Below are positions 10,412-44,563 of a stretch of DNA of 50,324 nucleotides, one piece after another; position 1 is the stretch's first letter, and the number at the start of each line of letters is the position of its first letter. The notes beneath the pieces are model-generated. The model was not told the origin of the DNA, made no database searches, and was given only the letters and a program-made list of their open reading frames with translations. The stretch lies in the IMG/VR virus record IMGVR_UViG_2839031043_000001; one strand, given 5' to 3'. The DNA is from an uncultured virus (IMG/VR IMGVR_UViG_2839031043_000001). Taxonomy: Duplodnaviria; Heunggongvirae; Uroviricota; Caudoviricetes. Position numbers and translations under genes: made by a program.

Positions 10412-10536
10412 AAATATATGAAAATGTTTAGTTCTATATTTAAACATAAAAACAACTTGAGTAGAGGGACAAATTGTGATTTGAAAATTCATTTTGTATC
10501 AAATGGATATTTCATTAGGTAAAGGAGAGAGCAAAT

Positions 10537-10923
10537 ATGCGTGTGATTGAGTTTCGCGGAAAGCCCATAGAAGAATATGAGGAAATTCTATGGGTATACG
10601 GCAGCGCAATTTTAAACTATGAGGATAAATTGGCTTACATTGAGGCTTCAGGTATGGGGTGCGTTCCAGTGCATTGGGAAACGGTAGGTCAATTCATTGG
10701 ACAGCCAGATAAGAATGATAAGCAGATATTTGAAGGAGATGCAGTGAAACACAAATTCCAACTTGGTGATGGATATGGGATTGTTTACTATTCTATGCCT
10801 GCTTATGGACTGAAGGTAAAAAACGGTGTATGTACAGAATTTGAATGGTCAGATTTTAATGAATTTGAAGTTATAGGAAACGTGCACGACAACCTTGAAT
10901 ATGCTCAATTTATTTTTGACTAG
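10537..10923 (+). CDS. YopX family protein
   Basis: IEFRGK..WVYG, TVGQFIG..DKNDKQIFEGD, EVIGNVHDN. Confidence 0.9.
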   Translation: MRVIEFRGKPIEEYEEILWVYGSAILNYEDKLAYIEASGMGCVPVHWETVGQFIGQPDKNDKQIFEGDAVKHKFQLGDGYGIVYYSMPAYGLKVKNGVCTEFEWSDFNEFEVIGNVHDNLEYAQFIFD

Positions 10924-10976
10924 ATGGGATTTATTTATAAAATTTATTTAATTTGAAATGAAGGAGGTGTAGCTTA

Positions 10977-11195
10977 GTGTCAAATAAGCATGAACTAATC
11001 ATGGTAAATAGAAACAAGGTGCAAGTATCTGGGGTAAAGGATATTGTAAGCTTAGACGATACCTCGATTACATTGGAAACAACAAATGGCTTTCTAGAAG
11101 TGTCTGGAGAGAAACTCAAAGTTACGAATTTGAACTTAGAGACAGGTGAGGTTTCTATAATTGGTGAAGTAGTAGAGATAAAGTATCTAACCTAA
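10977..11195 (+). CDS. yabP: YabP/YqfC-family sporulation protein homolog
   Basis: H.L...NR....SGVKDIVS.D...I.LET..G.L.V.G..L.V..LNL..G.V.I.G.V..I.Y pattern of YabP. Confidence 0.8.
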   Translation: MSNKHELIMVNRNKVQVSGVKDIVSLDDTSITLETTNGFLEVSGEKLKVTNLNLETGEVSIIGEVVEIKYLT

Positions 11196-11215
11196 AGTTG
11201 GGAAAGGTGAGGAAT

Positions 11216-12031
11216 ATGAGTTTTGACCTGATTTCAGACGTTCATCTGGACTTTTGGGTAAAAGTTGAAAATCCACTACATAAGATGGTGACTCAAGTTA
11301 GGAACTTTATAAATTCTATCTTGCCAGAGACTCCTCATAAAGTCCTCGTTATTGCTGGTGATCTTGGTCATTACAATTGGCAAAATAAACTATTTATTGA
11401 AGAGTTGAAACAGACATATGAGCACATTCTGATAGTTGCAGGAAACCATGATTACTATCTGGTTAGTGCTAATCAAGAAAAACAGTACCGAGGAAGATCT
11501 ATTAATCGTGTCATCGAGATGAAAGAAATCTGCAATGCGTATACCAATGTCCACTATTTTGATGGAGACACAGTAGAGATCGATGGCATTACCTATGGTG
11601 GAGTTGGAATGTGGTACGACTTCTCTTATGGGATGAAAGAACTTGGATATTCAGAAGAGGCCTTGTATTCCAAATGGTGGGATATAATGAACGACTCCAG
11701 ACTAATCAAGGGTTTGTTGGACAAGTCGTTTACATTTGCAGACGAAGAGAAGAAGAAACTTGACGCTATCATTGAACCCTCAGATGTGATAATCACTCAC
11801 GTTGGTGGAGATTGGAGTAGAGTCATCGGGAATTACAAGTTTGATCCAGTGACTTCATTCTACTATTTCGATGGGAGTCAGCATTTTTCAAAGCTGGAAG
11901 GTAAAGTCTGGTGCTTCGGACACACTCATCAGCGGTATGATTATGATGCTTACGGATGCTGGTTTGTTAATGCAGCTTTAGGTTATCCAAGTGAGGACAC
12001 AGGACGCAAAATAGTGCAGATTCAACTGTAG
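11216..12031 (+). CDS. Calcineurin-like metallophosphoesterase
   Basis: SDVH, AGDLG, GNHD, ITH, FGHTH, N..GYP motifs. Confidence 0.9.
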   Translation: MSFDLISDVHLDFWVKVENPLHKMVTQVRNFINSILPETPHKVLVIAGDLGHYNWQNKLFIEELKQTYEHILIVAGNHDYYLVSANQEKQYRGRSINRVIEMKEICNAYTNVHYFDGDTVEIDGITYGGVGMWYDFSYGMKELGYSEEALYSKWWDIMNDSRLIKGLLDKSFTFADEEKKKLDAIIEPSDVIITHVGGDWSRVIGNYKFDPVTSFYYFDGSQHFSKLEGKVWCFGHTHQRYDYDAYGCWFVNAALGYPSEDTGRKIVQIQL

Positions 12032-12053
12032 ACTAAATAAAAGAAAACTTTGA

Positions 12054-12305
12054 TTGGAAGTGAGAGAAAAAATGCATTTTAATCGAAACGTAAATAAGCG
12101 TGTAGCTGATTATGGCGATACGATAGTCACCAATAAAGATCAGTACTTGGTTATTGATACCAGTTTGATTAGCATGAGTAACTATGGACTTGTCTCAATA
12201 AAGGGTATGCATGTTGCAAGTCTATATCCTAACACTGATTGCTTTTATGTTGGAAATGAACTAAAACAAGATGAAATCATCAATGCGGTGTTCCTAAGAG
12301 ACTAA
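12054..12305 (+). CDS. Hypothetical cassette protein
   Basis: ORF bounded by junction palindromes at 12037 and 12306. Confidence 0.55.
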   Translation: MEVREKMHFNRNVNKRVADYGDTIVTNKDQYLVIDTSLISMSNYGLVSIKGMHVASLYPNTDCFYVGNELKQDEIINAVFLRD

Positions 12306-12347
12306 ATAAAAGAGATGTTTTATATGATAAGAGGAGGAATATAAAGA

Positions 12348-13016
12348 ATGAAAAACTTATTCAAACGTATTGCACGTCTGTTTACAATCAAATCGAACAA
12401 ACTATTAAAACAAATGGAAGACTCAATTGAAGTGCTTGAATATGAACTCGGAAAATCTGCTAAAAGTATTGGTGAGTTATCTGATAAGATATCTAAAATT
12501 AGAGCACAGAGACAAACCACACTAGATAATAAAGAAAAAACTAATACATACTTAAAGCAATTGCAAGAAGTATTGGATCTGGCAGTAGCAAAAGACGATG
12601 AAGTTTTAGGGAATGAAGCAATTGAATTATTGGAAAAGAATAAGGAAAAGGTAAAAATTATTGAAGTAAATATTCAATACTTTGATGGAGTAATCTCAAA
12701 ACTAGAGGAACAATATTACAACCTAAAAGCAAAATATGATGATAAAAAGTCAAAATTGGATTCATTAAAAATTAAAAATGAGTTCGCAAAAACAATGGAA
12801 AATGTAAATAAAGAATTGAAGGTTCATTACTCAAATGATGAATTTGATATGTCAGAAATCGAGAAGATTGAAACTGAAATTCAGGAAAAAATTTACTATG
12901 AAGCAAACAAAAATGAGAAGTTAAGTAAGCAAGAGTCACTAGGAGATAAAATGGCAGCACTGACTAAAACTAATCGATTTCAGCAATACAAAGAATCTTT
13001 AAAGGGAGTTAAGTAA
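12348..13016 (+). CDS. PspA/IM30-like coiled-coil protein
   Basis: N-terminal LFKRIARLF amphipathic helix then long coiled coil, 222 aa. Confidence 0.6.
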   Translation: MKNLFKRIARLFTIKSNKLLKQMEDSIEVLEYELGKSAKSIGELSDKISKIRAQRQTTLDNKEKTNTYLKQLQEVLDLAVAKDDEVLGNEAIELLEKNKEKVKIIEVNIQYFDGVISKLEEQYYNLKAKYDDKKSKLDSLKIKNEFAKTMENVNKELKVHYSNDEFDMSEIEKIETEIQEKIYYEANKNEKLSKQESLGDKMAALTKTNRFQQYKESLKGVK

Positions 13017-13017
13017 T

Positions 13018-13377
13018 ATGGTTGCTCCGTTATGGATGGTTCTAGGGTTTGATGTCAGTGTTGTACTATTAGTCGTGACAATAGTTATCTTGATCAAAAA
13101 GTTAAGAGCAAAAAATAACTATGGCAAAAAAATTATTAATTATTCGGAAGAAGATCAAATCATCGAAGTGTCTAAAATAATGAAAAGAAAAGACATAGAT
13201 AAATTTGATGCATTGGAATTAATTAAAAAAAGGAATCAGTTATTTGAAATCAATCTTAAAAAAAGCGAGTTTAAATTTGATTGTCCAGTATGTGGAAGGA
13301 ATAATTGGAAAGTCATGAGCACCAACATTAACTGCGACTGTGAGTCGATCAAGCCTTTAAAAAGCAAGTTAGAATAA
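13018..13377 (+). CDS. Membrane-anchored Zn-ribbon hypothetical protein
   Basis: N-terminal TM segment; CPVC..CDC. Confidence 0.55.
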   Translation: MVAPLWMVLGFDVSVVLLVVTIVILIKKLRAKNNYGKKIINYSEEDQIIEVSKIMKRKDIDKFDALELIKKRNQLFEINLKKSEFKFDCPVCGRNNWKVMSTNINCDCESIKPLKSKLE

Positions 13378-13411
13378 AACCAACATTTTATAAGGAAGGG
13401 AGTAGATTTTA

Positions 13412-13630
13412 TTGGAACGGGGGAGGGTGGTCAAATCTTCTGTGGTGAATGCTGGTCACTTACCTTCAAAGGTTAAAGGTGATGATTATTTAGATGAATT
13501 ACACAATGATAAGGATAGATACCTTGAAGCATTGAGGGAAATTGATATACATATCCGAAGTACAGATGATCCAGTGAGATACATAATTGAGACTTTGAAA
13601 ACTGTACTACCTGAATATAAGACCAAATGA
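13412..13630 (+). CDS. Hypothetical cassette protein
   Basis: ORF between palindromes at 13374 and 13627. Confidence 0.45.
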   Translation: MERGRVVKSSVVNAGHLPSKVKGDDYLDELHNDKDRYLEALREIDIHIRSTDDPVRYIIETLKTVLPEYKTK

Positions 13631-13677
13631 AACTCAAATTTCCTCGGAATTGATAATAAAAGAGGTGAGTATATAAG

Positions 13678-13977
13678 ATGAAAGAACTAACTCTCCCAAT
13701 AGGATATATGGCTGGTCTATGCATTTGGCTATTATACTTAAAGATCAAAGAGATTTATATCAGAAACAAGGAAAGACAAAAGCACAAAGCAGCCGTTGAC
13801 GATAATTTAAAAATGAATTTCCATACTTGTCCATCCTGCCTAAGTCCAATTAAGATCAAACGAAATAAAGAAAATGAAATAATTGATGGTAGTTATATTG
13901 AAACGATCCAAAGATGCATGGTCTGTGGAGTGGATTCTGTATCAACATTGAATATGGAAGGAAATGTAACGAGATAA
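13678..13977 (+). CDS. Membrane-anchored Zn-ribbon hypothetical protein
   Basis: GAGGTG RBS, TM segment, CPSC..CMVC. Confidence 0.55.
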   Translation: MKELTLPIGYMAGLCIWLLYLKIKEIYIRNKERQKHKAAVDDNLKMNFHTCPSCLSPIKIKRNKENEIIDGSYIETIQRCMVCGVDSVSTLNMEGNVTR

Positions 13978-14023
13978 AGCTCAATTTCGGCTAGTTATAG
14001 CGAATGGAAAGGAAGGAAATCAA

Positions 14024-14158
14024 ATGGGTGAGGCAAGAAGACGAAAGCAAGTAGAGGTAAATACATATAGAACTAAAAATAATAACTCAATTAAAAATAT
14101 ATACAATAACATGCTAGGTTTGATTTCATCTGGCAAAATCAAATTGACAAAACGGTAA
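14024..14158 (+). CDS. Small protein with MGEARRRK N-terminus (44 aa, not in track)
   Basis: AAGGAAGG RBS; N-terminus resembles MGEAKRRK (DUF2839-like) motif. Confidence 0.5.
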   Translation: MGEARRRKQVEVNTYRTKNNNSIKNIYNNMLGLISSGKIKLTKR

Positions 14159-14182
14159 TTATGACAAAGAAAGGGGCTTCTC

Positions 14183-14546
14183 ATGAATATTGAATTGGCA
14201 AAGAAATTCATGAAAATTGTTCAAAAGCACTCGCCAAGTTGTTTTATCAACCATAATTTCGAACTAATTGTCGAGCCTAAGAACAACATTTATTTCAGAC
14301 TAGAGGATGTAGACACCGAGTTAGAGCTTAAATGCAAGGTGCTTGCGTGGCTATCCAGACCGAGCTGCAAAGGCATTAGTGACCATTGGCAAAAAAAGGA
14401 TAAGAGCTATTGTAAATGAGTTTCTAAGAACTGACTTCACATTAGATGAAATGCACGAAGTTTACACTCGTTTAGGAAATGATTGCAATAGACAGTTAAG
14501 CATGAAATTCATCGAATCAAATTATGACTTGGCTTTATTTGAATAG
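14183..14546 (+). pseudogene. Phage hypothetical gene split by a frameshift in an A7 run
   Basis: Deleting one A at 14391-14397 joins ...SDHWQK to RIRAIVNEFLRTDF...YTRLGN into one ~120-aa ORF. Confidence 0.7.
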
Positions 14547-14599
14547 TGATTAATGCTATGTATTCAACTAAACGGCAATTGTGAAAAGGAGCGAGGCAA

Positions 14600-14752
14600 A
14601 TGAGTGTTGTAGGATATTGCGGTTACTGCGACAGGCAGTTTGAGTTTCACTCTGAGACTGTAAAGAAATCACTTGATCGTGACGGATATTCATACATAAA
14701 TATTTCTTGCCCGATTTGTGGCGGTTGTGAAGAGGTTCCAACAAGTAAGTAA
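14600..14752 (+). CDS. Small Zn-ribbon protein (50 aa, not in track)
   Basis: AAGGAG/GAGG RBS; CGYC...CPICGGC. Confidence 0.6.
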   Translation: MSVVGYCGYCDRQFEFHSETVKKSLDRDGYSYINISCPICGGCEEVPTSK

Positions 14753-14793
14753 TTAAACACATCATACGATGTGATAAATGGGAGGTCTAACTG

Positions 14794-15075
14794 ATGACGA
14801 AACAAGAGGCTATCGACTTGCTGAACACACTGACAGTAATTGAGTGCGAGATAGAAAATGATTGCTGCTTTGAGGTCATGGTCGCCATGGATTCCGAGAC
14901 AAGGGAAGTCCTTCGGAAATTGGGCAAGACCGATGAATGGATAGACCTGAACAAGCATATAGGCATCGGCATGAGCGAACGAGAAGGCATGTTCAACTTG
15001 ACGCTGCTTGCTTGGGATTATGCAAAGTGGTTTTGCGAGGAAAGAGGATTCTTGTTAGAAGAGCCGGATTATTGA
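14794..15075 (+). CDS. Acidic hypothetical protein
   Basis: GGGAGG RBS; higher GC than neighbours. Confidence 0.6.
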   Translation: MTKQEAIDLLNTLTVIECEIENDCCFEVMVAMDSETREVLRKLGKTDEWIDLNKHIGIGMSEREGMFNLTLLAWDYAKWFCEERGFLLEEPDY

Positions 15076-15117
15076 TTAACAAACCAATCGATTTGTTAAA
15101 TGGGAGGAGATAACAGC

Positions 15118-15249
15118 ATGTGGTGCACTTTTGAATGCAAGGGCTGCGAATGCTCTTTTGAAGTTACCTTTACCGATCATGACTTGGGTGATGAACCATA
15201 TGTAAATTATTGCCCGAATTGTGGTTGCGGACATGTAGAAGCAGTTTAA
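15118..15249 (+). CDS. Small Zn-ribbon protein (43 aa, not in track)
   Basis: GGGAGGAG RBS; FECKGC...YCPNCG. Confidence 0.6.
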   Translation: MWCTFECKGCECSFEVTFTDHDLGDEPYVNYCPNCGCGHVEAV

Positions 15250-15294
15250 CAAAACATTACGTTTGTAAAACCCAAAGAAACTATTGCATAGGAA

Positions 15295-15945: not shown

Positions 15946-15983
15946 ATCGAGGAGGAGACATTAAAACTAATAATAAAACAAAT

Positions 15984-16923: not shown

Positions 16924-18598
16924 ATGAAGTTACTTAAGCAAATTTTCAAACCGAAGCTTCCAAGGACAACCTTGAACAGAGAAAGTGAAAAATACTATTC
17001 AGAAATGCAGAAGCTTGCTAGAGACTTGGTTTCATATCTAAGTATGAACGAAGATCCTAATGAAGAAACCTTTCAAGGTAACTGGAATCTTACGTTTTTA
17101 GAAGAAAATATGACCGAGGAAGAATACGAAAAGATTGTATTTCAAATGATGTGTCGAATTCCATTAGGAAGGCTGATTGAAATAATTAATAAATCAAAGT
17201 ACATCAAAGCCGAAATAGTGCGTTAAAATAACATTTTAATTCAGAAAGGAGAACTGGACACATGACGATTTGGGAAGCATTGAATCAATTGCAAAATCAT
17301 CAAATGATTGAGGGAACTCCAAAAGATGATTATTGTTTACAGGAGAAGTATATTAGGAAGTTTAATGATCAATTAGAAGAGTGTGAGTATGATGGATATC
17401 CTATAGGCGGCTTTGATTGTGACTTAAGCTTGCTTGATATGTATGATTGGAAATTGAGTAAATTACCTGAGTGGACCCAGATTGATTTCAAGCATGCTCA
17501 TGATTGGTTATCAGATGGAAAAGAGGTAAAGTGTGAACTTGGTGAAAAGGTATACATACACTCACCTAAAAGCCTAAAAGACACATTCTTATCTTGGGAT
17601 CAAATATTACAAGGTGAATGGTACATTAAAAACTAATTAAAGTCCGATTTCATTGGAAAGGTGGTGAGATTATCAAAAAAGAAATGATGTTCACTATTGA
17701 AGAGGTAGTTGAAATATATAACCCTACGGCATCTGGAGCGGATTACAAAGGAATGATTAATGCTGTAAAGATTACAAAAGGGTATGCAAGTTTCGATGAG
17801 CAAGGTGAACTTCAGAATATGTTTGTTGATGATGTGAGGATCGACAACAAACAAACTAGACCAAGTGAACGCATTGAGGCTAGAAACGATAGCATGATCA
17901 AGAAACTATTAAAAAGATTAATCAAATAAAATAAAAGAAAATCCAATTTCTGAAGAAAGAGGAGAGAATTTAAATGCCTAATCTTGATGATGTTCAAACG
18001 AAACTTGAAAAATTGTGGGACTATCTTGATGATATGCCAACAGATAAATCATCTGAAGAAATGAATGACTTGATTGTTGCTGCAATGGATCAAGTTGAGG
18101 AGATTCGAACAGAAATTGATGCTATGGCTCATGAATTAGAAGAGGTAAATATTAAAGTTCAAAATATCATTCATAACGTGTAAGGAGTAGATGCAGATGG
18201 AGAAAGTAATTTTCCCAAAAGAGGTAGCACAGGCAATTGAATCAGTATTAAATCAACTTAAGCATAGTGATGTTGCTAATCATATCATCTTAACCAATTG
18301 GAGTTATTTAGCTGGCATGTTTAAAAAAGAATACTCAGTTCTATATGAATTCGCAAAGACTTCGATGATTGATTACGTAAATGGATTGGTCAACGGATAT
18401 GAAGTGGTTGAGACCCCAGAAGATAAAGTAAAAGCATTTTATGAGGAAGCAATGCAAATTCTACTAAACCCGAATAATTATCAACCTGCAACGGTAACAT
18501 TTAGCCAAGGTGTGGCAACTGGGATACTAAAAACACTAAATATCCTTGGCATAGAGGTAGTTGGTCTTACTGATGATAAAGAACTAATCAAATTGTAG
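16924..18598 (+). other. Run of five small hypothetical ORFs (16924-17226, 17262-17636, 17684-17929, 17974-18183, 18191-18598)
   Basis: Each has an RBS; several junctions carry the 18-bp palindrome; last ORF resembles DUF1642-type phage proteins. Confidence 0.6.
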
Positions 18599-18657
18599 TT
18601 TTATCAGAACAAAAAAGGCAACTGCTCAGAAGAACAGTCACCTCTAATATGATTTAA

Positions 18658-19265: not shown

Positions 19266-19266
19266 G

Positions 19267-19368: not shown

Positions 19369-19397
19369 ATACATGTACAAAAGATAAGGAGGCGCAT

Positions 19398-21075: not shown

Positions 21076-21559
21076 AGACTCGGTTGCTGAATATCTCATC
21101 AAGAAGTATGGTTTTACACGATTTGCCTTTGGAGATGGCATTAGAAGTGTTTGTAGGGATTTGTTTCCTGAGCAGCTTGCAAATGTTCAGAAACCTCGAT
21201 CATTGCTTCAAGGGGTGGGTCAAGCTATGCGGATGTTTAACCCTAATGTATGGATTAATAAATGCTTTAAAGAAATAAAAGAACACTATGGTGATATCAT
21301 TATTACAGATTTGAGGCAGCCAAATGAACTGAATGCCGTTAAACTTGATGGATTTTATGTAATTAGAGTGTCGAGTCCTGATGAGGTGCGGATACAAAGA
21401 ATGAATGCAGCAGGAGATAACTTCACATTGGATGAGTTGAATCATGAGACTGAAAGACACATAGACTCAATGGATGTTGACTTTGAAATACATAATGATG
21501 GCGATTTGGATCATCTGCATAACCAGATTGAGATAATTCTCAAACAAATGACCAAGTAA
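21035..21559 (+). CDS. Deoxynucleoside monophosphate kinase-like protein
   Basis: P-loop GKMRSGKD, R.LLQ.VG, ITDLRQPNE, HETE. Confidence 0.8.
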   Translation: MVKIALTGKMRSGKDSVAEYLIKKYGFTRFAFGDGIRSVCRDLFPEQLANVQKPRSLLQGVGQAMRMFNPNVWINKCFKEIKEHYGDIIITDLRQPNELNAVKLDGFYVIRVSSPDEVRIQRMNAAGDNFTLDELNHETERHIDSMDVDFEIHNDGDLDHLHNQIEIILKQMTK

Positions 21560-21589
21560 AAACCTAATTTTATTGAATGGAGGATAATT

Positions 21590-23067
21590 ATGAATTCAGC
21601 GGAACACTACGATATTGATTTTCCAGATGGTTGGCATATAAAAGTTGGTCAGGTTTACTCAAGCCCATACCAATCATGCCATTTTCTTGTAACTAAAATT
21701 GTGCTAGATCAAGGTGATGAAATCAATGACGCAGAGATTCATTACAAAGAAGTGAATCCACAAAATTATAAGGAAATTTATGAAAATGAACACCATCTTT
21801 GGCATCGAGCTTGGTGGGTTAATGATGGAAATTGGGATTTGGAACGTGATGTTGATTTACAATAAAATCTAATATTTATTGGAACGGGTGATCTGATGAC
21901 TGACACAAAGACAATGGCATTGCTTGGTGATGTCTGGTACCAAGTTATGGGAGTACGTGATGGAACTGAAGTAGAATATCGCCTATATTCCAAAGATTAT
22001 TGGGTTCCACGCTCGTGGATAAAAGAGTTTAAAGAAGAATTGAAATCAAATAATAATTTGGAGAAGTGATAATTTTGACTATAGAAGAATTTAAAAAATA
22101 TGCAATCGATCTTAAAAGGTTCAATATAGCTGAAGTGGAAGAATTGACACTAATGCAGCCTGACGAACTAGATCAATATCAAACGGAACTGGAACGAGAC
22201 ACTGGCAACCTGTCTAATTGGGATCATTTCAGAGCATTCATCACAATGAAAGCCAAAGTGAAAACATATGAAGATGTTGTACTTAACCATATTAATAGTA
22301 TAAGAGAGGAGGGCGAGTAATCTGTCTAAGCTCAACAAAGAACAACGCATTGAAGTAGTAAACAAAATCATTAAAGAGATTTCACTACGAGGTCGTAACT
22401 TCTTCTATTCGAAAGCAAAAGAGCGATTAGCTTATTTTGTCCAAGGTAATCGCTCTCTGTGGTACGTGGATGAGTATACAGGAGTACCTATAAAAATGGT
22501 CAAAGGACAAATGAGTAATGACAAGGGATTTTCCCACGGAGGTACATTGTGGGGACTTGTGAACGATTTTAAAGACTTTATCAATGGAGATGACGAAGCT
22601 TATCACAATAACGGTTATGGTGGCTTATATTGTCCTCATTGGGGATATCCAGAAGAAGATATGGCTGCAATCCAAAAATATGCTATTGAGTTGGGGTACT
22701 TAAAATCATGAAAGATTGTATTGTAAAAATAACGTTTGCTCCAGACCATATAATGATGTTTGGGAACTCATATAAGCCATGGGAAATGCAATTTGAAGAA
22801 TACCTATACCTACTAAAACGTGATGGAGAATACCCTTCTGAGATCAAAGAAGTTAAGATTTCAGATAGTCCATGGATTAAATGGGGTGGGTTGAAGTGGT
22901 GCCCAGAGCAAAAGTTCCAATATCTATTAAATCGTGAAGGGTGTCAAGAGAAAGACCCAGATAATCCAAGACCAAGAAAGTATAGCGAGATGAAGTTTTA
23001 CAAGAATGGAGCAATAACTAAAAAGGTCAAACAATATTTCAGGAACGTGTTTCAAGGTATATATTGA
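21590..23067 (+). other. Run of small hypothetical ORFs (21590-21865, 21896-22069, 22066-22320, 22322-22711 with CTG start, 22708-23067)
   Basis: RBSs, translational coupling, junction palindromes at 21556 and 21862. Confidence 0.6.
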
Positions 23068-25523: not shown

Positions 25524-25577
25524 TACATTGAAGTAAATCTGAATCAAATTCGTATTTTATTTCGAAAGGGTGTAAAT

Positions 25578-26844
25578 ATGGCACTAACTCAAAAAGGCAA
25601 AGACAATTTACTACTGTGGTTGGAGAAGGTTGAAAACATTAATGACATGAAGTTACTCATTCGCTCACTTATTCTGAGTCAAGACGTAACCGAAGATAAA
25701 AACTAAATAAAAAATAACTTTTATCGAAAGAAGGCGAGGTAGAATGAAGATTAAGAAGACTGATTATGCGCTAATTAAAGAGGCAGAAAATGAAGGAAGA
25801 TCTGTTTCAATGAGTAGTGTTATCGACAGAAATAGAACTGAATTGAATAAAGAGTTGCAGTCATATTTCAACCAAAATTATAAAGAATATAAAGGTAGCT
25901 ATGATGAAAATGAGGGAGAGGACGTTCTTTATTCATTAAACGAATACATAAGCGACCACAAGATTGATATGCGATCTTTAGATTTTCCAATCGTTGAAGG
26001 TACTGATGTTTACTTATTGCCTATAACCAATAATCTTCAATTAAAGGTGATTGTAGCTGATGAGTACTATGGTGGGGGCAATTACTCAAAATATGTAATG
26101 ATTGATAGGTTTATCATTACAGATTCAGCAACTACTGAAGATGTAGATAAGTTGATTACAGTTTTACGGGAGTATTCTGTCAGGTAACTGTCTCAATGAA
26201 ACAGTCATTTAATTGGAGGTGATTCACTATTTGGTTTGACTGTCTTGAAAAAATATCACTTAAGCTTCAAGGAATACATAAGATATTTGAATTCTATTTA
26301 ATTGCTTATAGTGGTGATCCTATATTCGATTTTTATCAAGGAAGAGTTTTAATAATTAATGACAAGCAATATGTGCTCATTCGGAAGTATTTAGATGGTG
26401 GTAGCATCTATGATCAAAGAATTAAAATTTATGGCATTGAATACTCCAAAGCACCACCTGAGCTAAAAGACAAATTAAATGTCTTAATCGAAAGAAATCA
26501 AGATAGACATCGCAGCGAACACACGAAAAATTGGAATTGGCTACTTCAAAAGCATCAGTACTATAAAGCTCATATAAAATAAAATCGAGATTATATTCAG
26601 AATGGGAGATGAAGTCATGCAGAAATCCATTCCTGCAAAGCATTTGATTGAGGCACATGCATATCATAAGAACAAAGTAAAGTCACTTGATTTAGTGTTA
26701 ACGGAGTTAATGACAGATAATGAATTTGGAGAGAAGAAAGGCATTCATTCCGAAACGATTGAGTTTATTAAACAAAAGATAAATGAACACGATGAGAAGC
26801 AGAAATATTATGAAGAGGTAGAGATTATTCCATTAAATAGTTAG
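25578..26844 (+). other. Four palindrome-delimited small ORFs (25578-25706, 25744-26187, 26229-26582 with ATT start, 26617-26844)
   Basis: Palindromes at 25543, 25707, 26196, 26579 precede each RBS. Confidence 0.6.
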
Positions 26845-28787: not shown

Positions 28788-28875
28788 TTGAAATTAGTTT
28801 ATATAAACAAAAGTATAAAATAATGATTATGTGATTTGAATGAAATGCAAGTTTGATTAGGAAAGGGGGCAAAGC

Positions 28876-29232: not shown

Positions 29233-29290
29233 AGACTATTGGGGAAAATAAAATTTTAAAATAAAATTACTCATTTATTTGGAGGTATTG

Positions 29291-30350
29291 ATGGGAAACA
29301 CACTAATTGTTTTAACAGGTGACGACTGGGAAGGTCTATTTTATAATGGGAAATTAATCGAAGAAGAGCACAGCATTCATAAATCAGAACTTGTTAATCG
29401 AATGAAGCAATATCAGACATTTGATGTTAGATTTTTATGGCTTAATAATATGGGGCTGAAATGGATACATAATGAGGGAAGTTTTCCATCTAACTTTGAG
29501 GATGTTCCCAAAGAATATTTTGGATAAAACAACGTTTTGATTAGGAGATGGGTTTATGAATAAAATCACTATTAGGACTTGGGACTATACATGTGGAGAT
29601 CGTTGTTGTTATGACTGGGGTCAAGATATCAAGGTCAACGATGTAGAGGTAGGAACTTTTCAAGATGTTGATATTGCTGCTATAGAAGCAATACTAAACG
29701 CACTTGGTATTAAGTTTGAGCTAGAGGAGATTGACAATAGGGAATAAAATTAGGATTTCATATTAAAAATAATATATAAAAAAACATGATAAAGCTATTT
29801 ACAAACAAATTCTGATGCTNNNNNNNNNNNNNGAATACACCTTTTGAAAGGACTGAGAACAATGTAAGTCAACAAGAAGTGCCTCATAAAACTATCTGCA
29901 AAATAAATAAAAATATAGAGGAGAATACATAATGAACTTTTTCAATAAAAACAATCAAACTGTACATGCAAAAACGGTTGAGTCAAAACGAAACAAGATT
30001 CAATACTATGGAATTGGAACTAATAACACAGTAATTGATTTTGAAGCAAGCACACCTATTCAAGCACGAAGCTACTTTGAAATGGAATTCAATGCACAGG
30101 GCACAGAATTAAACTACATGGGTGCATATGCACGTTAATGGGCACGAAAGACATTCCCAGTGTAGTAGATTGCAAAGAATGGATTCAAAACATATTGAAT
30201 CGTGTTAGGAATGTTGATCTATTCACTAGCTACAATCTAAGTGTTAAAGATTTTGAAAAAGGCTACGAAGATGCTGAACTAAGACGAGCATTGAAGAACT
30301 TAAAGAAGGCATATGAAGAAATGAAGGCTGAAACAAATACATCAACATAG
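29291..30350 (+). other. Small hypothetical ORFs (29291-29527, 29556-29747, 29932-30138, 30138-30350)
   Basis: RBS-preceded; palindromes at 29261, 29524, 29744. Confidence 0.55.
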
Positions 30351-33666: not shown

Positions 33667-33721
33667 AGAAATCCAATGAAAGATGTCTTTAATTAGAAAA
33701 GTATAAAGGGGTAATTGAGAA

Positions 33722-34144: not shown

Positions 34145-34238
34145 TATTTTATTAATTGTGGATTGAATCGTACTAAGGAGGGGGCAATCCCCCCTTCCGA
34201 TAAAACAGAGATTTTATGGAGAAAGGAGGTGAAGAAAG

Positions 34239-35212: not shown

Positions 35213-35272
35213 GAGGTCCAAATGATTTATATCAAACACTGATTTCATTCAATTAATAGGGAGGAAACACAC

Positions 35273-36325
35273 ATTAAATCAAACATCTTTATTCCTGAAA
35301 AGTTAAAGGTAGGATTCCGAGAAAGAGGCGATACATATACAGGTAAACTGGCTTATGTAATTTGCTATGATCAAAAAGGGAAGCTTCGCAAGGAAAAGTC
35401 TTGGCAAGGTTGGCGAGATAATAAAATTCAGGATCTGGACTTTGAAAATGAACCAACTTCAGGTTTTGTTTTAAATAAAAAAATTGGTGGACACAGTTCA
35501 GGTTGGAATCATAGGCAAACATATGTAAGAGTGTATGACCCACGAGATTTCGAATTCGAAATCAGTGTGCCCAATCTTTTATACATACTAGAAAATACCA
35601 ACTCAATCAAAGGTAAAGGCTTAGAAGGTGATTTCGTTTATGGTTGGGATGGTACTGAACTAGTACTTATCCCAACAAGTTCACCTGATTATGCTGATAT
35701 TTCAGAACTTAATAAGTTAAGACATGAAAAGCCTAAATTTATTGGAAAAGAATTGATTATAGGTGCAACATATAAATCTAATGACAATGTAAACTTGATT
35801 TATTTAGGCAGATTTTATGAAGCAAATGGTGAAAATAAAGAGTCTAAAGCGTACTTCTTTTACAACACAAGTGGCAAATACTCAAAAATACAACACTACA
35901 AATCTCTAACTAGCAATATCTTAGATATTGTGGATGATAAATGTGTGGATAATTATTCTAATTTAATTGACGAATTAAAAAAATCGAGGTATTACTCGGA
36001 AAGAGATCCCAATAAGGATGAGTACGTTAATTACACTTTGGACGAGTTTAAAAATGGGTTTAGCTCTTCATATTATGGCGATCCATTTTATACAGATGAG
36101 GGTGAAAAATTATTCGTTTCCAAGCATCGTAATTATGGTTGGCACAATAACTATAATGATAAGTATGACGTTTATGACAGTTATAGAAATAGGAAAAATG
36201 AACAAATTTTAACCAAGATGACTTTAGAGACGATTTTTACAAAATACAAACCAAAATACTTAATAACATATAAATCAAATGGTGAATTAATTAAAAAATG
36301 GAGGAATATAAATGACAAAAAATAA
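35273..36325 (+). CDS. Phage hypothetical protein (~350 aa), ATT start
   Basis: Frame open from ATT 35273 behind AGGGAGG, adding 86 codons (KSNIFIPEKLKVGFRERGDTYTGKLAYV...). Confidence 0.7.
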   Translation: MKSNIFIPEKLKVGFRERGDTYTGKLAYVICYDQKGKLRKEKSWQGWRDNKIQDLDFENEPTSGFVLNKKIGGHSSGWNHRQTYVRVYDPRDFEFEISVPNLLYILENTNSIKGKGLEGDFVYGWDGTELVLIPTSSPDYADISELNKLRHEKPKFIGKELIIGATYKSNDNVNLIYLGRFYEANGENKESKAYFFYNTSGKYSKIQHYKSLTSNILDIVDDKCVDNYSNLIDELKKSRYYSERDPNKDEYVNYTLDEFKNGFSSSYYGDPFYTDEGEKLFVSKHRNYGWHNNYNDKYDVYDSYRNRKNEQILTKMTLETIFTKYKPKYLITYKSNGELIKKWRNINDKK

Positions 36326-36725: not shown

Positions 36726-36752
36726 TCAAATAAAAATTGTATTTTATGAGGA

Positions 36753-36986: not shown

Positions 36987-37041
36987 GAAAAAGATAAAAG
37001 CAGAATTTGATTAGATATTGCATTACAAAGGGGAGATTAAT

Positions 37042-37838: not shown

Positions 37839-40368
37839 ATGAATACACAAGCGTACGCAGTCAGACACTTAAGAGACTTACCAAATAAAGCTCAGGAAGG
37901 TGATGTTTACTACGTTGACGAGAGCAAAGAGTATTTTACTAAACCTGTTTGTTATCAATGGACAAGTGGGGCGTGGCACATCAAATACATAATGAATGAG
38001 GTGGTTTGAGGTGTGTAAGGCAAGTGAGGTGTCAAACAAAATTGTTGAGTTATTAGAAGATGCTATTGGTATTAGACAGAGTTTGGTGAGTCAGTTGTCT
38101 GATTTGGACAGGAAATTGTCAGATGCTTATCATGATTTAGAATTTGTTGAAATGAACGCATACCAAGGATACAAAATCGCAAAATACATACAAAGCATTG
38201 TGCAAGAACGAAGAGCAATTAAGAAAGAACTTCATTCGCTTAATAGTTTTGTTGACTCCATTACTGCAAGTGGATTGAAACAAAAGTTTGAGACTTATGC
38301 ACAGAAGGCTGATAAGTTACATAAGAGTTATGCGAAACCTAAACCTAGAGGATCATTTAAGCATATAAGTTGACAAATGATACATTAAAAGGAGGAACTG
38401 AAGTGGACAAGTTACCTTATACAAAAGATTTCCCAGTACGCAAGGTCACTACAGATGAATGGGAGATTAAAGTTTATGACATATATGTAATGATGGATCG
38501 CAAGGGATTTGAAGAGTTGTTAAGACGAGGAAGGTTTTATGGTTTGTATTCGAAGGTGATAGGAGAGGAGTAGTGAAACCCAGTAAAGCATCAATTTGAT
38601 TAGAAAGCGAGGAAATTAAGTGAACGTTCCATTGTCGGTGGTTAAAGCAAATAAAACAGATCAGTATGTCCATCTAAAAAACGAACTTGAAAAAGCAAGT
38701 GTGGTGAGGCGCGAAAGTTACAAGAAAATGGATAGCACCAGAGATGAAATCAAGAACATTTTTGCGCCGAAAGGACATAGAGATCCTTTGTTTAGAAGTA
38801 AACGATACGTTGAGTACAACCATTGGACTGAAGCATTAAAAATTGCGGAATTGGCTAATTTACTTGTTGAAGCAACTGGATTATACATAGAGGCAGATTA
38901 TAAATGCGATGATATTCAAAGTAAAATTATTCAAATGGAGAGAATGTAATAAAGTATCAGTTTGAAGTGGAAAGGATAATGAGAGTGGAGTATCGAGAAC
39001 CAGTTAGAGGATTGAGAATTTATGTCCCAACATCGTTATCTATTGGTCATGGACAAGACGATGTTAGAGGAGGTTTAGCAACAATTGAACGTATCATGCT
39101 GAAAGAGTGCGAAAATGAATACAATACTGTATTTTGCACAGTAAAAGAAGTGAGAGGTAAGTCATATAACTGGAGATACCTGTTAAGCAATCAAGATAAA
39201 TGGGCTATTAAATATGACAAGCAAATTGCAAGAAATGATCCTGATTATTACGACTACGGTTCATACTAAAAATCCGTTCAAAGATTGAATTCATTCAAAA
39301 AAGGAGAGGATACATTGTTCAAGCAATACCTAACATTCATCTATTTTAACAGAGACTTTTACTATCCGAATTTCATTCAAATGCTATCTGCCAGTCTGTT
39401 GATTATCCTATTTACCAAACTGATTAATCACCCATTATTTGAAGAGATAGTAATTATTTTCTCTGGATTGTTTCCATCGGCAGTTATTGCAACCACATAT
39501 ATCCACTGGGTTTATGAACACGGAAGGAAAGGAAGCTAAAATAATGAAACTAACTGAAATTAGAGCAGAATACCTTAAACTTAGAAAAGCTGCAAAGCAA
39601 TACATAAGTAAGCAATTTACGATGGATGGATCAGTAATTGGACTATCAGGCGAATACTTTTTTAAGATTGATGAAGTAGATATTGTAGATGATGTTGCTC
39701 AAGTTTATTATTATTCACCTGAAGTGGGATTTGAGGATGAAAGTCCTTGGGTGTTGGAATTTATCCCATTCAAAGTGTTAGAAGAAAATGCAAGATGGAA
39801 TGAGGCTAAAGAAAATGTGGTGGGAATGTCCCAAGTGTAAAAGTAAAGTTGATTGTCATAATCAAATGGAAGAAGTATTTGATTATGACAACAAGGAAGC
39901 AGATTTCAATCCAGAGTCAGGTCTGATCTTGCATACAATATCTTGTGATTGTGGAGTAGACTGGTTTGTGTCTATCAGTAAGATGTCAACTGAAAGAATG
40001 GAGCACATGGCTGAAACGGAAATCAAATAAAATTATCATTTCATGAGAAAGGAGATGTAGAATTGAGTTCTTTGTGGAATGAATTTTTCAGCGGTGCAAA
40101 TGTTCCTAAACTAAAAGCGAAAGCATATGAACTAAAAGCAGAAATGGATTTAATTCAAGGTTTCTTTTCATGGTTTCAAAAGGCTTCAGCGAAATCAAAG
40201 TTAGTTCAGATTCTTGATGAAATAGACTATCAAGAAGGAAGGAAACAATTTGCTAACAGACCCTATAGCAAGCCAAGTGCAAGTATTAAGCGAAAGAGAT
40301 GCACAAATGACAATGAATGTCAGTGTGGGTGCTGGGCAATTAAACGTAAAGAGCACTTCAAACTCTAG
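37839..40368 (+). other. Run of small hypothetical ORFs (37839-38009, 37996-38373, 38370-38573, 38620-38949, 38967-39269, 39285-39539, 39544-39840, 39815-40030, 40063-40368)
   Basis: Consecutive RBS-preceded ORFs; palindromes at 40027, 40369 and degenerate ones at 38583, 38949. Confidence 0.55.
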
Positions 40369-40477
40369 ATAAAAGTCCTATTTGATTCGATATTGACATA
40401 CATAGAGCAAATAAATTATTATATGACATCGCTATTTTAAGAGTGTTCAGAAATGAGTTATAGTTTCATCAGTACAG

Positions 40478-41695: not shown

Positions 41696-42826
41696 TTGAA
41701 AAACACTTATCGAATTATAGGGGACACTGTTGAGATTCTTTTAAGATCAAAAAAATATGGTAATTTTCTTACCAACATCTCATTAGGGGACTTAGAGAAA
41801 GTTAATCAATTCAAGGGTAGTTGGTATTTGTGGCATAGAGAAGGGGATGGCTACTACGTCAAAGGTAATATAAATGTAAATAATAAAAAAACAACTATTT
41901 TCTTGCATCGCTACATATTCGATTTACCTTCAGTAGAGATACATATAGATCATATTGATCATAATGGATTAAATAACACCAGAGGAAATTTGCGAGAAGT
42001 TAATCACTTTGAAAATAGCCAAAATCGTACAGGGGCATATTCGACTAGTAAGAGTGGACAGCGAGGTGTTGCTTATTCAAAACTGCATGATAAATACGAG
42101 TCATACATCAATATTAACTACATAAAGTACAGTTTAGGATTATTCAAAACTGTTGAGGAAGCAAGTGAAATGGCTTCAATTGCTCGTGCAGTGTTTATGA
42201 CTCATGCTACTGATGACCAAAATATATGCATTTATTACAAGGAAGATAAAGGATCTAAACTCATCTTTAGGCACGGAGTAATGGGAAGTGGAAAGACTGA
42301 CAACTTGCTAAAGCTATCGCACATCTATAAAAGGCTTAAGAAGAATATATGCCTATTAACACCCCACATTGATAATAGGTTCGGAGATGGGTTAATAAAA
42401 TCAAGAAGTGGGTGGGAAAGCAAGGCGGAAATCATTTATCCTGACACTGATGTTTCATCAATTATCACTAAATCTGGTAGTGAAGTCATATTTATTGATG
42501 AAGTCAATTTCCTAACTATGAATCAAATTAAGCAAATTTCATATCTACTTGAATTTAAGAAATTAAAAATATACTGTTATGGATTACTAAAGGATTTTAA
42601 AAATGATTTCTTTGCCTCAAGTTTAGAATTGCTAAGATGTGCGGATCAGATACAAGAGATAAAAAGCAATTGTTCCTATTGCGAAAATGTAGCATCAAGA
42701 ATTTTAAAAATCAAAAATGGAACTCCAGTATATAAAGGAGACCAAGTGGAAATTGGTGCTGAAGATCTCTATAGGTCAGTTTGTATTTCTCATTATCATA
42801 ATCCTCCATCAAAGGATGTTGGATAA
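41696..42826 (+). CDS. tdk: HNH-AP2 endonuclease fused in frame to thymidine kinase
   Basis: N-part LHR..IDHIDHNGLNNTRGNLR + AP2; from 42251 GVMGSGKT, DNRFG, FIDEVNF, YGL..DF, CSYC..YRSVC..HY. Confidence 0.85.
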   Translation: MKNTYRIIGDTVEILLRSKKYGNFLTNISLGDLEKVNQFKGSWYLWHREGDGYYVKGNINVNNKKTTIFLHRYIFDLPSVEIHIDHIDHNGLNNTRGNLREVNHFENSQNRTGAYSTSKSGQRGVAYSKLHDKYESYININYIKYSLGLFKTVEEASEMASIARAVFMTHATDDQNICIYYKEDKGSKLIFRHGVMGSGKTDNLLKLSHIYKRLKKNICLLTPHIDNRFGDGLIKSRSGWESKAEIIYPDTDVSSIITKSGSEVIFIDEVNFLTMNQIKQISYLLEFKKLKIYCYGLLKDFKNDFFASSLELLRCADQIQEIKSNCSYCENVASRILKIKNGTPVYKGDQVEIGAEDLYRSVCISHYHNPPSKDVG

Positions 42827-43026
42827 TGGACAGGCACACATACTTTGAAGAAGAGCAGAAAAAAGTAGGTCAATGCATATGCGGTGATGATTTGTTTGAA
42901 GGAGATAGAGCACATCAACTTGATGAATATATAGTATGTGACAATAGTGATTGCTTCAAGAAGTTGTGTATTGAGAAGTTTGGAGCTATGTATGGAGTAT
43001 TGGACAAAGAAGGTAATGTAACATAA
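42826..43026 (+). CDS. Small Cys-rich protein (YqaI-like)
   Basis: CICGDDL..GD..CDNSDC. Confidence 0.5.
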   Translation: MDRHTYFEEEQKKVGQCICGDDLFEGDRAHQLDEYIVCDNSDCFKKLCIEKFGAMYGVLDKEGNVT

Positions 43027-43092
43027 TGCACAAGAAATGAATCTAAAATAATTGATTTGATTAATTAAACAGGAGGTTAGTTTAATAACTGA

Positions 43093-43383
43093 ATGACAGT
43101 ATTTGAGCAAACATTAAAAGGAGCTGATTATGACGTGTACATGAAAATTCCTACATTTATGATGGATGAATTGATTCTTGAAAACGGAGATTGGCTAAAA
43201 CTCAGAATTGGCACTGGTTATTTTGTTTTAGTAAAAACAAATGAGAAACGTAGTGGAGTACAAATTAAAAATAACAAAATTAGATTTCCTCAGCAATTTA
43301 GTCATACATATAGAGTTCGTTCAAATGATCGAGTGCAGATGCATGTTCGTGGTGAGAAACTGATATTTAGTAAAGTAAAATAG
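43093..43383 (+). CDS. Tandem AbrB/MraZ-like swapped-hairpin protein
   Basis: Two repeats: KIP....ELILENGDWL and RFP....YRVRSNDRV. Confidence 0.5.
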   Translation: MTVFEQTLKGADYDVYMKIPTFMMDELILENGDWLKLRIGTGYFVLVKTNEKRSGVQIKNNKIRFPQQFSHTYRVRSNDRVQMHVRGEKLIFSKVK

Positions 43384-43399
43384 TAAAGTGAAATGATTT

Positions 43400-44169
43400 A
43401 TGATTGAAGAGGTGAAGCAAATGAACTGGATTAAGTTTGATAGATACAATATTCCAGAACGGAGTAAGCCTTATCTAATCACAGATGGTGATAAGATTGA
43501 CATTTCGTATTATCCTGATTTTGAATGGGGATTATTTGATCAGTACGGAATCAGGAAGGTGTCAGATGTTACTCATTTTATTCCCATAGAATTATCCAAT
43601 TTAGATGGAGTTGATTACATTATGAACTCAAACGGTGGCATGACTCCCCAAGAAAAAGAAATAGCTGATCATATTGTTGCAGCTTGGAATGGCTTCGTAA
43701 CACTAAAGCCAACCCATCCAGATGATATCAATGAGTTTGGTGATGCAATTCATAGGGTTCAACACTTGTTAGGAATGAGAGTGTTGAGACGAGATTATCC
43801 AGATTATTGGATCACTAAATCCAAATAAATGCTGACTTTATCGAGAGGGGGAGAAGTTGCATGGAGATTTTAGGAAGACCTTATGTTTTTGGAGACCCTG
43901 AGCAAAGTGAGTGGATCAGAAAAGAATATTGGAAAGAAGACTTGCGAAATCAAATAGTAAATGGACTACAGCAAGCTTTTGATGGAATTGATGAATATGC
44001 GTATGCATTTACTTCTGACGATGAGTTACAAGCAACCATAAAACATGCTGTAGAGAAGCTTAAGTACATTGGCGGAATTACACATCATGAAAAACTGGAA
44101 GCAGAGAAGAACTCTGATGAGGGTATGTTTATCAAATGGGAGCAGGGCAAAAAGAAGAGTAAAAAATGA
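43400..44169 (+). other. Two hypothetical ORFs (43421-43828, DUF551-like N-terminus; 43861-44169)
   Basis: NWIKF...PE...VTHFIP motif in the first; RBSs. Confidence 0.55.
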
Positions 44170-44183
44170 AATGGGGGAGTAGG

Positions 44184-44525
44184 ATGCTCCGAGCATATCT
44201 CGATGGCTTATCACAGTCAATCAACAACAAGTCAACGTTATCAATTACAATCACCGACTTAAAAGGTAATCTTGAATATCAAAATTATGAACTCCTAGAC
44301 AGCAAAAGGAGTAGTACTGAAATAGAAATGATGGCATTTAATAAGATGATGGATTGGCTATTAGAACATAAAATTAATGAAGTTGTTGTATACACAGAAT
44401 CAAGGTATGTATACACGAACTGGCGCAAGAACAAAGCTTATTCATTAAACAAGTCAAAATTTGATTGTTTCGTGGTTAGACTTATTGGAAATTCGAACAA
44501 TGTTGTAAATTTGGCTTTTGCATAA
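44184..44525 (+). CDS. RNase H-like fold protein (divergent)
   Basis: AYLDG, STEIEMMA, VYTES (third Asp replaced by Glu). Confidence 0.55.
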   Translation: MLRAYLDGLSQSINNKSTLSITITDLKGNLEYQNYELLDSKRSSTEIEMMAFNKMMDWLLEHKINEVVVYTESRYVYTNWRKNKAYSLNKSKFDCFVVRLIGNSNNVVNLAFA

Positions 44526-44563
44526 ATCTAAATAAAACCTTAGTTTAATTAGGAGATGACAAC

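Follow-up and report, generated by a model that had tools for sequence, protein, structure and literature searches.

Many gene junctions in a 50,324-nucleotide stretch of DNA from an uncultured virus of the Caudoviricetes (IMG/VR record IMGVR_UViG_2839031043_000001; the whole stretch is called the window here) carry a short palindrome, ATNAAA-N6-TTTNAT, in which two AT-rich arms enclose a centre of six bases. The motif is family-wide in SPbeta-like phages. Comparison of related phages points to a set of short dyad sites that mark exchange points, each with its own conserved centre. We tentatively favour the interpretation that the sites are position-addressed exchange joints at which partners are matched by their spacers, probably through site-specific recombination of the lox/dif kind.

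Results

A palindrome of fixed spacing at the gene junctions

The window holds 21 exact copies of ATNAAA-N6-TTTNAT, 20 within 10498-44549 and one at 45329-45346 (Table 1). An earlier inspection of the same DNA (the sequence-only reading) had counted 20 exact and at least six one-mismatch copies, had estimated about one chance match per window and had proposed a scan with a shuffled control. In such a scan the enrichment proved to be real, with 0.71 copies expected and a largest value of 2 in dinucleotide-preserving shuffles. It is also dependent on the spacing: arms separated by six bases give the 21 copies, while other spacings from N2 to N11 give 0-5.

All 21 exact copies lie at the boundaries of open reading frames (ORFs) and none is inside a long ORF. 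In 16 a stop codon within 60 nt upstream is combined with a Shine-Dalgarno sequence (SD) and a start within 70 nt downstream, two have only the start and three only the stop. TAA within the left arm forms the upstream stop codon in seven of the 21. This is the placement between stop and ribosome-binding site, often with TAA as part of the left arm, that had been described earlier. The flanks extend the motif weakly, with an A at position 0 and then T-A-G-R-A-A leading into the SD. With one mismatch there are a further 21 matches, two of which are shifted readings of exact sites and seven of which lie at junctions (Table 1); the others, mostly within ORFs, look like chance. The centres of these 28 sites (21 exact, seven with one mismatch) are all different, as had been claimed of the spacers, and none is self-complementary. 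Two further claims held only in part. The core replication block, 1-9465, is free of exact copies as stated, but contains one one-mismatch copy (2707) in the gap 3′ of the helicase gene. The proposed unit of one small ORF per site would suit the 13 of 27 site-to-site intervals that are shorter than 500 bp, but the others span 0.5-4.2 kb.

Most copies precede the SD by 1-17 nt, and purines predominate in the downstream flank, which is what might be expected of a signal in the polycistronic early mRNA, whether it acts as a small hairpin, as a site of RNase processing or as an enhancer of translation 5′ of the ribosome-binding site. The copies do not, however, form a stable fold, the mean minimum free energy being -0.71 kcal/mol against -0.64 kcal/mol for shuffles, with only one of the 21 reaching -2 kcal/mol. 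The two N positions show no covariation, pairing between them being possible in only six of the 21 copies, the sites at 34200 and 35231 follow hairpin-like stretches that were read by eye as terminators, and the position-specific centres described below would be left unexplained. An RNA signal is therefore very improbable. RNA processing had been one of the options in the sequence-only reading; the hairpin and processing form of it was rejected on the folding energies and the pairing of the N positions.

The motif across the SPbeta-like family

Judging from its polymerase, its gene order and content, and a serine recombinase followed by host DNA, the window is the right arm (the equivalent of yorG to yotN) of a distant SPbeta-like prophage. 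At 5491-9465 it encodes a YorL-type DNA polymerase with 60% identity to the enzyme of SPbeta and its relatives. Genes for a helicase, a RecJ-like protein and the polymerase follow one another as in SPbeta yorI-yorL, and about 37 kb of mostly small plus-strand genes lie downstream of the polymerase. At the far end a large serine recombinase gene (46936-48564) is followed by host DNA of higher G+C.

In SPbeta the window's pattern occurs 14 times, in 13 cases as ATAAAA-N6-TTTTAT, and the right 49 kb of the genome has 22 copies of TAAAA-N6-TTTTA; in both cases other spacings give 0-1. Many of the SPbeta copies are at gene junctions of the yoq-yot region and some are among late genes. In records with a relative of YorL the window's pattern is found 19, 22, 3, 25 and 12 times, against 0-1 for the reversed pattern, and complete genomes of 164-175 kb contain 45-65 copies of TRAAA-N6-TTTYA against 3-9 of its reverse. 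A staphylococcal SPbeta-like phage shows weak enrichment (20 against 10), and Bacillus phage SPO1 has no copy in its first 50 kb and one in the whole genome.

These counts bear on the simplest alternative, that the motif is a functionless by-product of AT-rich gaps, TAA stops and A/U-rich leaders. The intergenic gaps are indeed AT-rich and the left arm often contains a stop codon. Composition would not, on the other hand, enrich the 6-bp spacing alone, nor hold reversed patterns to 0-9 where relatives have 12-65 forward ones, and SPO1, a Bacillus phage which also has many small genes, has 0-1 copies. We consider a by-product of composition scarcely credible.

No published description of the junction palindrome was found in the full-text literature on SPbeta-like phages, in agreement with the earlier statement that no function had been described; the original SPbeta annotation paper and preprint supplements were outside the scope of this search, so an earlier mention is possible. 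SPbeta was reportedly first annotated by Lazarevic et al. in 1999. A ‘stem_loop’ feature in the SPBc2 record (116406-116431; L001 31406-31431) coincides with a junction site, the one with the centre TATTCC.

Exchange points coincide with the sites

A megablast search of window positions 10000-30000 against phages gave no match, and scans with YorL and the class II ribonucleotide reductase (RNR) across viral, genome and metagenome contigs gave nothing above 72% protein identity (at most 71% for YorL). The accessory region of the window has almost no DNA in common with relatives, and for only about 15 of its roughly 70 genes does the closest record, G001, have a protein homologue. Because the window is without a close relative, exchange was investigated in seven SPbeta-clade right arms, those of SPbeta, phi3T, Goe11-14 and SPR, each with 8-14 strict sites.

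Alignment of related SPbeta-like phages, also proposed in the sequence-only reading, showed that breakpoints in this clade are clustered at the sites. The ends of unique blastn high-scoring segment pairs (HSPs) fall within 20 bp of a strict site in 97 of 401 cases, although such zones make up only 2.2-3.1% of the sequence. Starts near sites are mostly at the left edge (46/61 at -13 to +2) and ends at the right edge (37/49 at +15 to +25), therefore the shared tract includes the whole site. Of 154 breakpoint events, 132 involve a partner with the same centre and six a partner with a different one, and in 16 the copy of the partner does not conform to the strict pattern; four of the six differences are explained by BLAST alignments that extend across a site where only the arms match. 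Of the SPbeta junctions that contain a site, allowing one mismatch, 17 of 18 show a breakpoint against at least one of the six relatives, compared with 14 of 33 without a site (Fisher P=2.4e-4). When only gaps of at least 15 bp are considered, 11 of 19 motif-less junctions have a breakpoint (P=0.019).

Laboratory hybrids of phi3Ts and SPbeta provide some separate observations. In Hyb2phi3Ts-SPbeta (L042) the tracts 5250-6653 and 14790-19684 are identical to both parents and end 6-8 bp after the sites with centres TTTGTC (6631) and GAATAC (19664), so that the parental identity blocks end at sites. The right arm of Hyb1phi3Ts-SPbeta (L049) is that of phi3Ts with a 116-bp tandem duplication in the yorX region (7396-7627). 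The available part of the study that describes such hybrids mentions one ‘nonhomologous’ recombination site ‘following yosA’ (10.1101/2020.05.06.055103). The site with centre TATTCC lies after yosA and could be that junction.

Centres are position addresses

Among the seven arms there are 215 pairs of sites with the same centre. Taking a flank as alike when at least 70% identical over 60 bp (unrelated 60-mers have a mean of 0.32 and a 95th percentile of 0.60), both flanks are alike in 75 pairs, one in 91 and neither in 49; this last class includes nine distinct centres. Around the centre TTCAAT three to four types of left flank and two of right flank are found in the combinations A-X, B-Y, B-X and C-Y, and around GTTTTA two left types are combined with four right types, while the order of sites TTCAAT, GTTTTA, GGATGA is kept in all. 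In these alignments left and right flank types reassort freely around one site.

The arms themselves suggest where the exchange occurs. When the two members of a pair differ in an arm, the flank on that side is unrelated in 19/19 left-arm and 2/2 right-arm pairs (21/21, from four distinct sites), and the opposite flank is mostly alike (15/19 and 2/2, respectively). Arm variants follow their own flank, therefore the exchange point lies between the arms, in the centre.

A second clade gives the same picture. G008 and G010, which are alignable over 49 kb only, share 24 same-centre pairs among their 47 and 45 sites in perfectly collinear order, where a uniform-chance estimate (47 x 45 / 4096) is about 0.5. 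Neither flank is alike in 13 of these pairs, and 9/9 arm differences are on the side with the unrelated flank. Centres thus differ within a genome and are conserved between genomes at the same map position. The sequence-only reading had taken the variable spacers as evidence against homology-dependent exchange; the comparison reverses this argument, because conserved, position-specific centres are what spacer-matching exchange between phages needs.

A dyad in the small gaps of an early region might equally be an operator or roadblock, read by a dimeric phage DNA-binding protein that silences or times the early genes, with breakpoints piling up at the sites only since these are conserved islands. 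The geometry would fit, the early-region genes between which the sites lie must stay silent in the lysogen, and SPbeta-like phages are described, in the accessible parts of two reports, as having recombinase-fold DNA binders and a second repressor, SroE (PMC10516654, 10.1101/2025.11.27.690993). An operator would predict free drift of the uncontacted centre, however, and instead the centres are position-specific and are kept even where both flanks have been replaced. The SPbeta sites among late genes are a further difficulty. Moreover, the repressor site already described in this family, SPBRE, is a different sequence. It was suggested in silico, and chromatin affinity purification with sequencing (ChAP-seq) ties it to MrpR, with ten peaks at SPBRE promoters in what is available of these papers (PMC10516654, PMC4191935); MrpR, also named SroF or YopR, is said there to bind a 24-26 bp box as a monomer (10.1101/2025.11.27.690993). 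SPBRE, with a consensus of 15 bp or more, is listed upstream of yorE, yorM, yorZ, yosX, aimR and others, and the consensus that we derived from SPbeta promoter regions is approximately ACAAATACAAAwAATATGTATA, within promoter-like -35/-10 stretches. Like the junction motif it is an intergenic repeat of the same phage family, and it is read by a protein of the tyrosine-recombinase fold, but it has some ten copies, at promoters, and a monomeric reader. Identity of the motif with the SPBRE/MrpR operator was rejected, the 22-mer pattern having no match in the window with up to three mismatches. Overlap with sigma-A type promoters was not apparent either: 16 of the 21 exact sites lie between a stop and the next SD in operons, and a promoter-like stretch was seen by eye only after the site at 40369. 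An operator array, with these points taken together, is improbable.

A more serious alternative retains exchange at the sites and dispenses with a dedicated recombinase. Here the sites are identity islands of 16-22 bp used by the annealing and repair proteins of the phage (Sak4-like YorG, RecJ-like YorK, a YotM-like resolvase) or by host RecA; the arms could owe their conservation to something else, for instance the binding of a regulatory or architectural protein, and recombination restricted to identical sites would homogenise them, so that identical centres persist. All of the comparative patterns fit this as well as they fit enzymatic exchange. Many breakpoints are away from sites, and the window encodes a Sak4-like protein (51-593) that is 66% identical to SPbeta YorG, together with RecJ-like and YotM-like proteins. 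It leaves unexplained, on the other hand, why palindromic arms at an exact 6-bp spacing are shared across phages whose proteins are 52-70% identical, and 16-20 bp is short for efficient exchange driven by an annealase. Laboratory hybrids formed mostly in ordinary homology, as far as the accessible text of the hybrid study goes (10.1101/2020.05.06.055103), which would favour it. We judge exchange by short homology to be somewhat unlikely as the full explanation of the sites.

Sites in the window

The sites of the window are collected in Table 1, each cassette having a site at either end. Although the sequence evidence from these copies is thin, some of it resembles what is found in the relatives. 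A two-gene block, 35276-36735, is common to G004 (77% identity) and G002; in the window, G004 and G002 a site lies directly 5′ of it, with the related centres CACTGA, CACAAT and CACGAA, respectively, and the DNA upstream is unrelated. The homology of the block to G004 ends inside the site at 36730. The first gene of the block (35273-36325) apparently starts with ATT, where the G002 homologue has ATG at the aligned position; the frame is open from 35273, and the ORF lister gives only a GTG start at 35531.

The centre TTGTAG (18587) is present in G001 too, lying in both between the ligase and transglycosylase genes and having other genes beside it there. It contains the stop of ORF 18191-18598, so that a coding constraint on the centre is possible, and this may help to explain the same centre in G001. 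It would seem reasonable to suppose that the window copies behave like those of the better-sampled clades.

Table 1. Junction sites in the window. The sites are dyads and are listed with no strand (entered as ‘.’).
Feature	Position	Strand	Centre	Context
Junction site, exact	10498..10515	.	TGGATA	21 nt 5′ of YopX-family gene start 10537
Junction site, exact	12037..12054	.	GAAAAC	5 nt 3′ of phosphoesterase gene stop
Junction site, exact	12306..12323	.	GAGATG	directly 3′ of a stop, before PspA-family gene 12348
Junction site, exact	13374..13391	.	CCAACA	left arm contains upstream stop TAA
Junction site, one mismatch	13627..13644	.	CTCAAA	
Junction site, one mismatch	17223..17240	.	TAACAT	
Junction site, exact	17636..17653	.	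GTCCGA	
Site, exact	18587..18604	.	TTGTAG	contains stop of ORF 18191-18598; same centre syntenic in G001 (55092)
Junction site, one mismatch	21556..21573	.	ACCTAA	3′ of dNMP kinase gene
Junction site, one mismatch	21862..21879	.	TCTAAT	
Junction site, exact	25543..25560	.	TTCGTA	3′ of C5 methylase gene
Junction site, exact	25707..25724	.	AATAAC	same centre in G001 at 58247, flanks unrelated
Junction site, exact	26196..26213	.	CAGTCA	
Junction site, one mismatch	26579..26596	.	TCGAGA	
Site, exact	28840..28857	.	TGCAAG	60 nt 3′ of OLD-family ATPase gene, 18 nt 5′ of start 28876
Junction site, one mismatch	29261..29278	.	TTACTC	
Junction site, exact	29524..29541	.	CAACGT	left arm contains upstream stop
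Site, exact	29744..29761	.	TTAGGA	end of ORF 29556-29747
Junction site, exact	33676..33693	.	GATGTC	3′ of dUTPase gene
Junction site, exact	34200..34217	.	CAGAGA	after G+C-rich hairpin-like stretch (by eye), before P63C gene
Site, exact	35231..35248	.	CACTGA	left edge of two-gene block common to G002 and G004
Site, one mismatch	36274..36291	.	TGGTGA	20 nt 5′ of start 36312
Junction site, exact	36730..36747	.	ATTGTA	G004 homology ends inside, at 36735
Junction site, exact	36994..37011	.	GCAGAA	before ThyX gene
Junction site, exact	40027..40044	.	TTATCA	
Site, exact	40369..40386	.	GTCCTA	directly 3′ of stop 40368; then TTGACA / TATTAT promoter-like stretch (by eye)
Junction site, exact	44532..44549	.	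CCTTAG	
Junction site, exact	45329..45346	.	TGTATG	outside the range of the sequence-only reading; 26 nt 5′ of HNH_3 endonuclease gene 45372

Candidate recombinases

A Pfam scan of the 69 window proteins found no tyrosine recombinase, the sole recombinase being the large serine enzyme at 46936-48564. Each of the SPbeta-like genomes checked has one to three tyrosine-recombinase-like genes, and their co-occurrence with the motif is thus uninformative. The only Pfam integrase match in G008 is a YopP-like homologue (63403-63888), which in the alignment keeps R, K, HxxR, H and Y. The same residues are kept in G010, and in the YopP-like proteins of both records the box reads HSFR, the usual HxxR. 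A search of PDB sequences with YopP gave no match. The available part of one study places yopP among the core genes transcribed in lysogens (PMC10516654). On their sequences the YopP-like proteins are candidate enzymes only.

Other genes of the window

The nucleotide-metabolism genes of the window encode a class II RNR, dUTPase, ThyX, thymidine kinase and a deoxynucleoside monophosphate (dNMP) kinase; there are also a C5 methylase, four HNH endonucleases, an OLD-family ATPase and a YotM-like protein. The OLD-family ATPase, which has a TOPRIM domain (AAA_15, AAA_21, OLD-like_TOPRIM; 26956-28779), is a single cassette between the sites at 26579 and 28840 and is likely to be an anti-phage defence gene.

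The class II (B12-type) RNR (30750-32996) occupies the place of the class Ib nrdEF of SPbeta, with its introns and intein. A Brevibacillus sp. contig (54% G+C) carries a gene with 72% identity to this RNR, and viral contigs (43-56% G+C) carry genes with 52-67% identity, from which the RNR gene seems to move horizontally between unrelated elements. The RNR-bearing loci L004-L008 (G+C 43-56%) are without enrichment of the motif.

The single open frame 41696-42826 combines an HNH_3 endonuclease domain (residues 80-108) with a thymidine kinase domain (188-367) and may be either a genuine fusion or two genes that the ORF call has joined. Directly after the serine recombinase gene, on the minus strand, is an ORF for a cyclophilin-type isomerase (48579-49064), matching positions 3-61 only of a 159-position profile; the prophage may have integrated into the gene for such an isomerase. 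The early region also encodes a YabP-family (sporulation) protein (10977-11195) and a PspA/IM30-family protein (12348-13016).

Discussion

Interpretation of the sites

The site can be read as a dyad in which two AT-rich arms (ATNAAA / TTTNAT, or TAAAA / TTTTA in SPbeta) surround a free, asymmetric 6-bp centre, often with the upstream stop as TAA in the left arm and with the downstream ribosome-binding site 3′ of the right arm. If a cell contains two related phages, or a phage together with a prophage, DNA would be exchanged between sites that share a centre, such that whatever lies between two joints, one gene or several, is replaced as a slot without change to the gene order. The most likely chemistry would be conservative site-specific recombination with strand exchange inside the centre, by an enzyme that would lie outside the window. 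The arms are presumably read by a protein, because they keep their dyad form and fixed spacing across phages with polymerases that are only 52-70% identical, and we would expect the exchange to be enzymatic and not driven by short homology. At lox, FRT and dif, strands are exchanged in the centre and the partners must match there. Spacer-matching site-specific exchange is tentatively favoured because position-specific centres, together with exchange in the centre, would match simple tyrosine-recombinase sites by analogy; in the relatives, where this can be compared, exchange inside the centre goes with identical centres in the partners.

A number of points weigh against this interpretation. 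The arms of lox, FRT and dif are 11-13 bp, whereas only 5-8 bp are conserved here. The sites account for only part of the mosaicism: the 14 motif-less SPbeta junctions also have breakpoints, and of 61 SPbeta HSP ends, 16 are no more than 12 bp from a site with up to one mismatch, as are 5.7% of positions, and 35 are elsewhere. The pair counts are not phylogenetically independent, and the arm test is biased by being conditioned on identical centres. The closest YorL in the collections searched is at most 71% identical to that of the window, and the centres of the window's sites are in common with distant relatives in six cases against 3.0 expected, which is not significant (P=0.11). With respect to the enzyme, SPbeta YopP and YomM (L002 38691-39767 and 301-1302) carry HSFK and HLFK, that is HxxK, with Lys at the position of the second catalytic Arg, though the tyrosine aligns in all; and the staphylococcal SPbeta-like phage, where the motif is weakly enriched, also has tyrosine-recombinase genes. 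The laboratory hybrids Hyb1 and Hyb2 are uninformative, the Hyb2 crossovers lying somewhere in identity tracts of 1.4 and 4.9 kb, and the hybrid study, in its available part, places 15 of 16 laboratory recombination sites in ordinary homology (10.1101/2020.05.06.055103).

A fuller form of the proposal, which we regard as rather doubtful, is that SPbeta-like phages possess a natural multi-site cassette-exchange system of dozens of heterospecific sites, in which the 6-bp centres would be slot addresses read by a tyrosine recombinase of the YopP (SroD) family from the lysogeny operon. A prophage and an incoming relative would then swap accessory genes slot by slot, leaving the order unscrambled.

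Comparison with known systems

The closest kinds of element are tyrosine-recombinase core sites with heterospecific centres, the pdif modules of plasmids and the promoter-early stem-loop (PeSL) cassettes of T4-type phages, and the motif does not fully belong to any of these kinds. With lox, FRT and dif, in which inverted arms enclose an asymmetric centre of 6-8 bp, it shares this geometry, here with a 6-bp centre (0/28 self-complementary in the window), and partners that appear to need the same centre. It differs in the 5-8 bp of conserved arm and in the presence of dozens of sites per genome, each with its own centre, in conserved order. As with heterospecific lox and FRT sites, sites of different centre would coexist in one molecule without recombining, and the result resembles cassette exchange; to our knowledge, sets of heterospecific sites are a laboratory invention.

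The integron form of the earlier proposal did not stand. Recombination sites are the best supported of the three options that the sequence-only reading had put forward, but an attC site is a long, imperfect inverted repeat folding in single-stranded form, and an integron has its integrase gene, with attI and a promoter, at one end of the array, whereas the element of the window is 18 bp, with some bias in the flanks and no stable fold, and is not adjoined by an integrase, none of the 69 window proteins being of the tyrosine type. The stoperators of mycobacteriophages L5 and Bxb1 are likewise tens of short sites in the small gaps within long operons of a temperate phage. The immunity repressor binds stoperators, which are asymmetric 13-bp sites, all alike and with the same orientation, and have neither a variable centre nor a link to gene exchange, whereas the core of the SPbeta-type site is a dyad.

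The pdif/dif modules of Acinetobacter plasmids, as described in the part of the report available, have Xer-type sites that flank adaptive genes, and the modules are found in different replicons (PMC6449649). The likeness is in the many sites within the accessory region of one replicon and in genes bounded on both flanks. The pdif sites, however, are plasmid sites that resemble chromosomal dif and are tied to dif/Xer, whereas SPbeta-type sites are phage sites with different, shorter arms, and their order and centres are conserved between genomes, suggesting replacement in place and not mobile modules.

PeSLs consist of a promoter and a terminator stem-loop and, according to the excerpted account, recombine with each other by homology, even forming mini-circles (PMC2839356). 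They too are short repeats between small, non-essential early genes in hyperplastic regions, to which insertions, deletions and replacements map. SPbeta-type sites, on the other hand, are 16-18 bp, with no stable stem and too short for a promoter of their own, and their centres differ, which should prevent recombination within a genome.

Significance

In large temperate phages, small accessory genes that change quickly, among them genes for defence, counter-defence and nucleotide metabolism, form long runs, and the sites would supply a concrete mechanism by which such runs could turn over while keeping their order and expression. As an aid to annotation, they mark cassette boundaries in SPbeta-like prophages. 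A tractable model is at hand in SPbeta and phi3T of Bacillus subtilis, where the old idea of special linker sequences between phage modules can be tested by crosses and binding assays. If the enzyme were found, it would bring with it many naturally orthogonal recombination sites. If the fuller form of the proposal is true, these sites would give physical form to the ‘linker’ of the modular theory of phage evolution.

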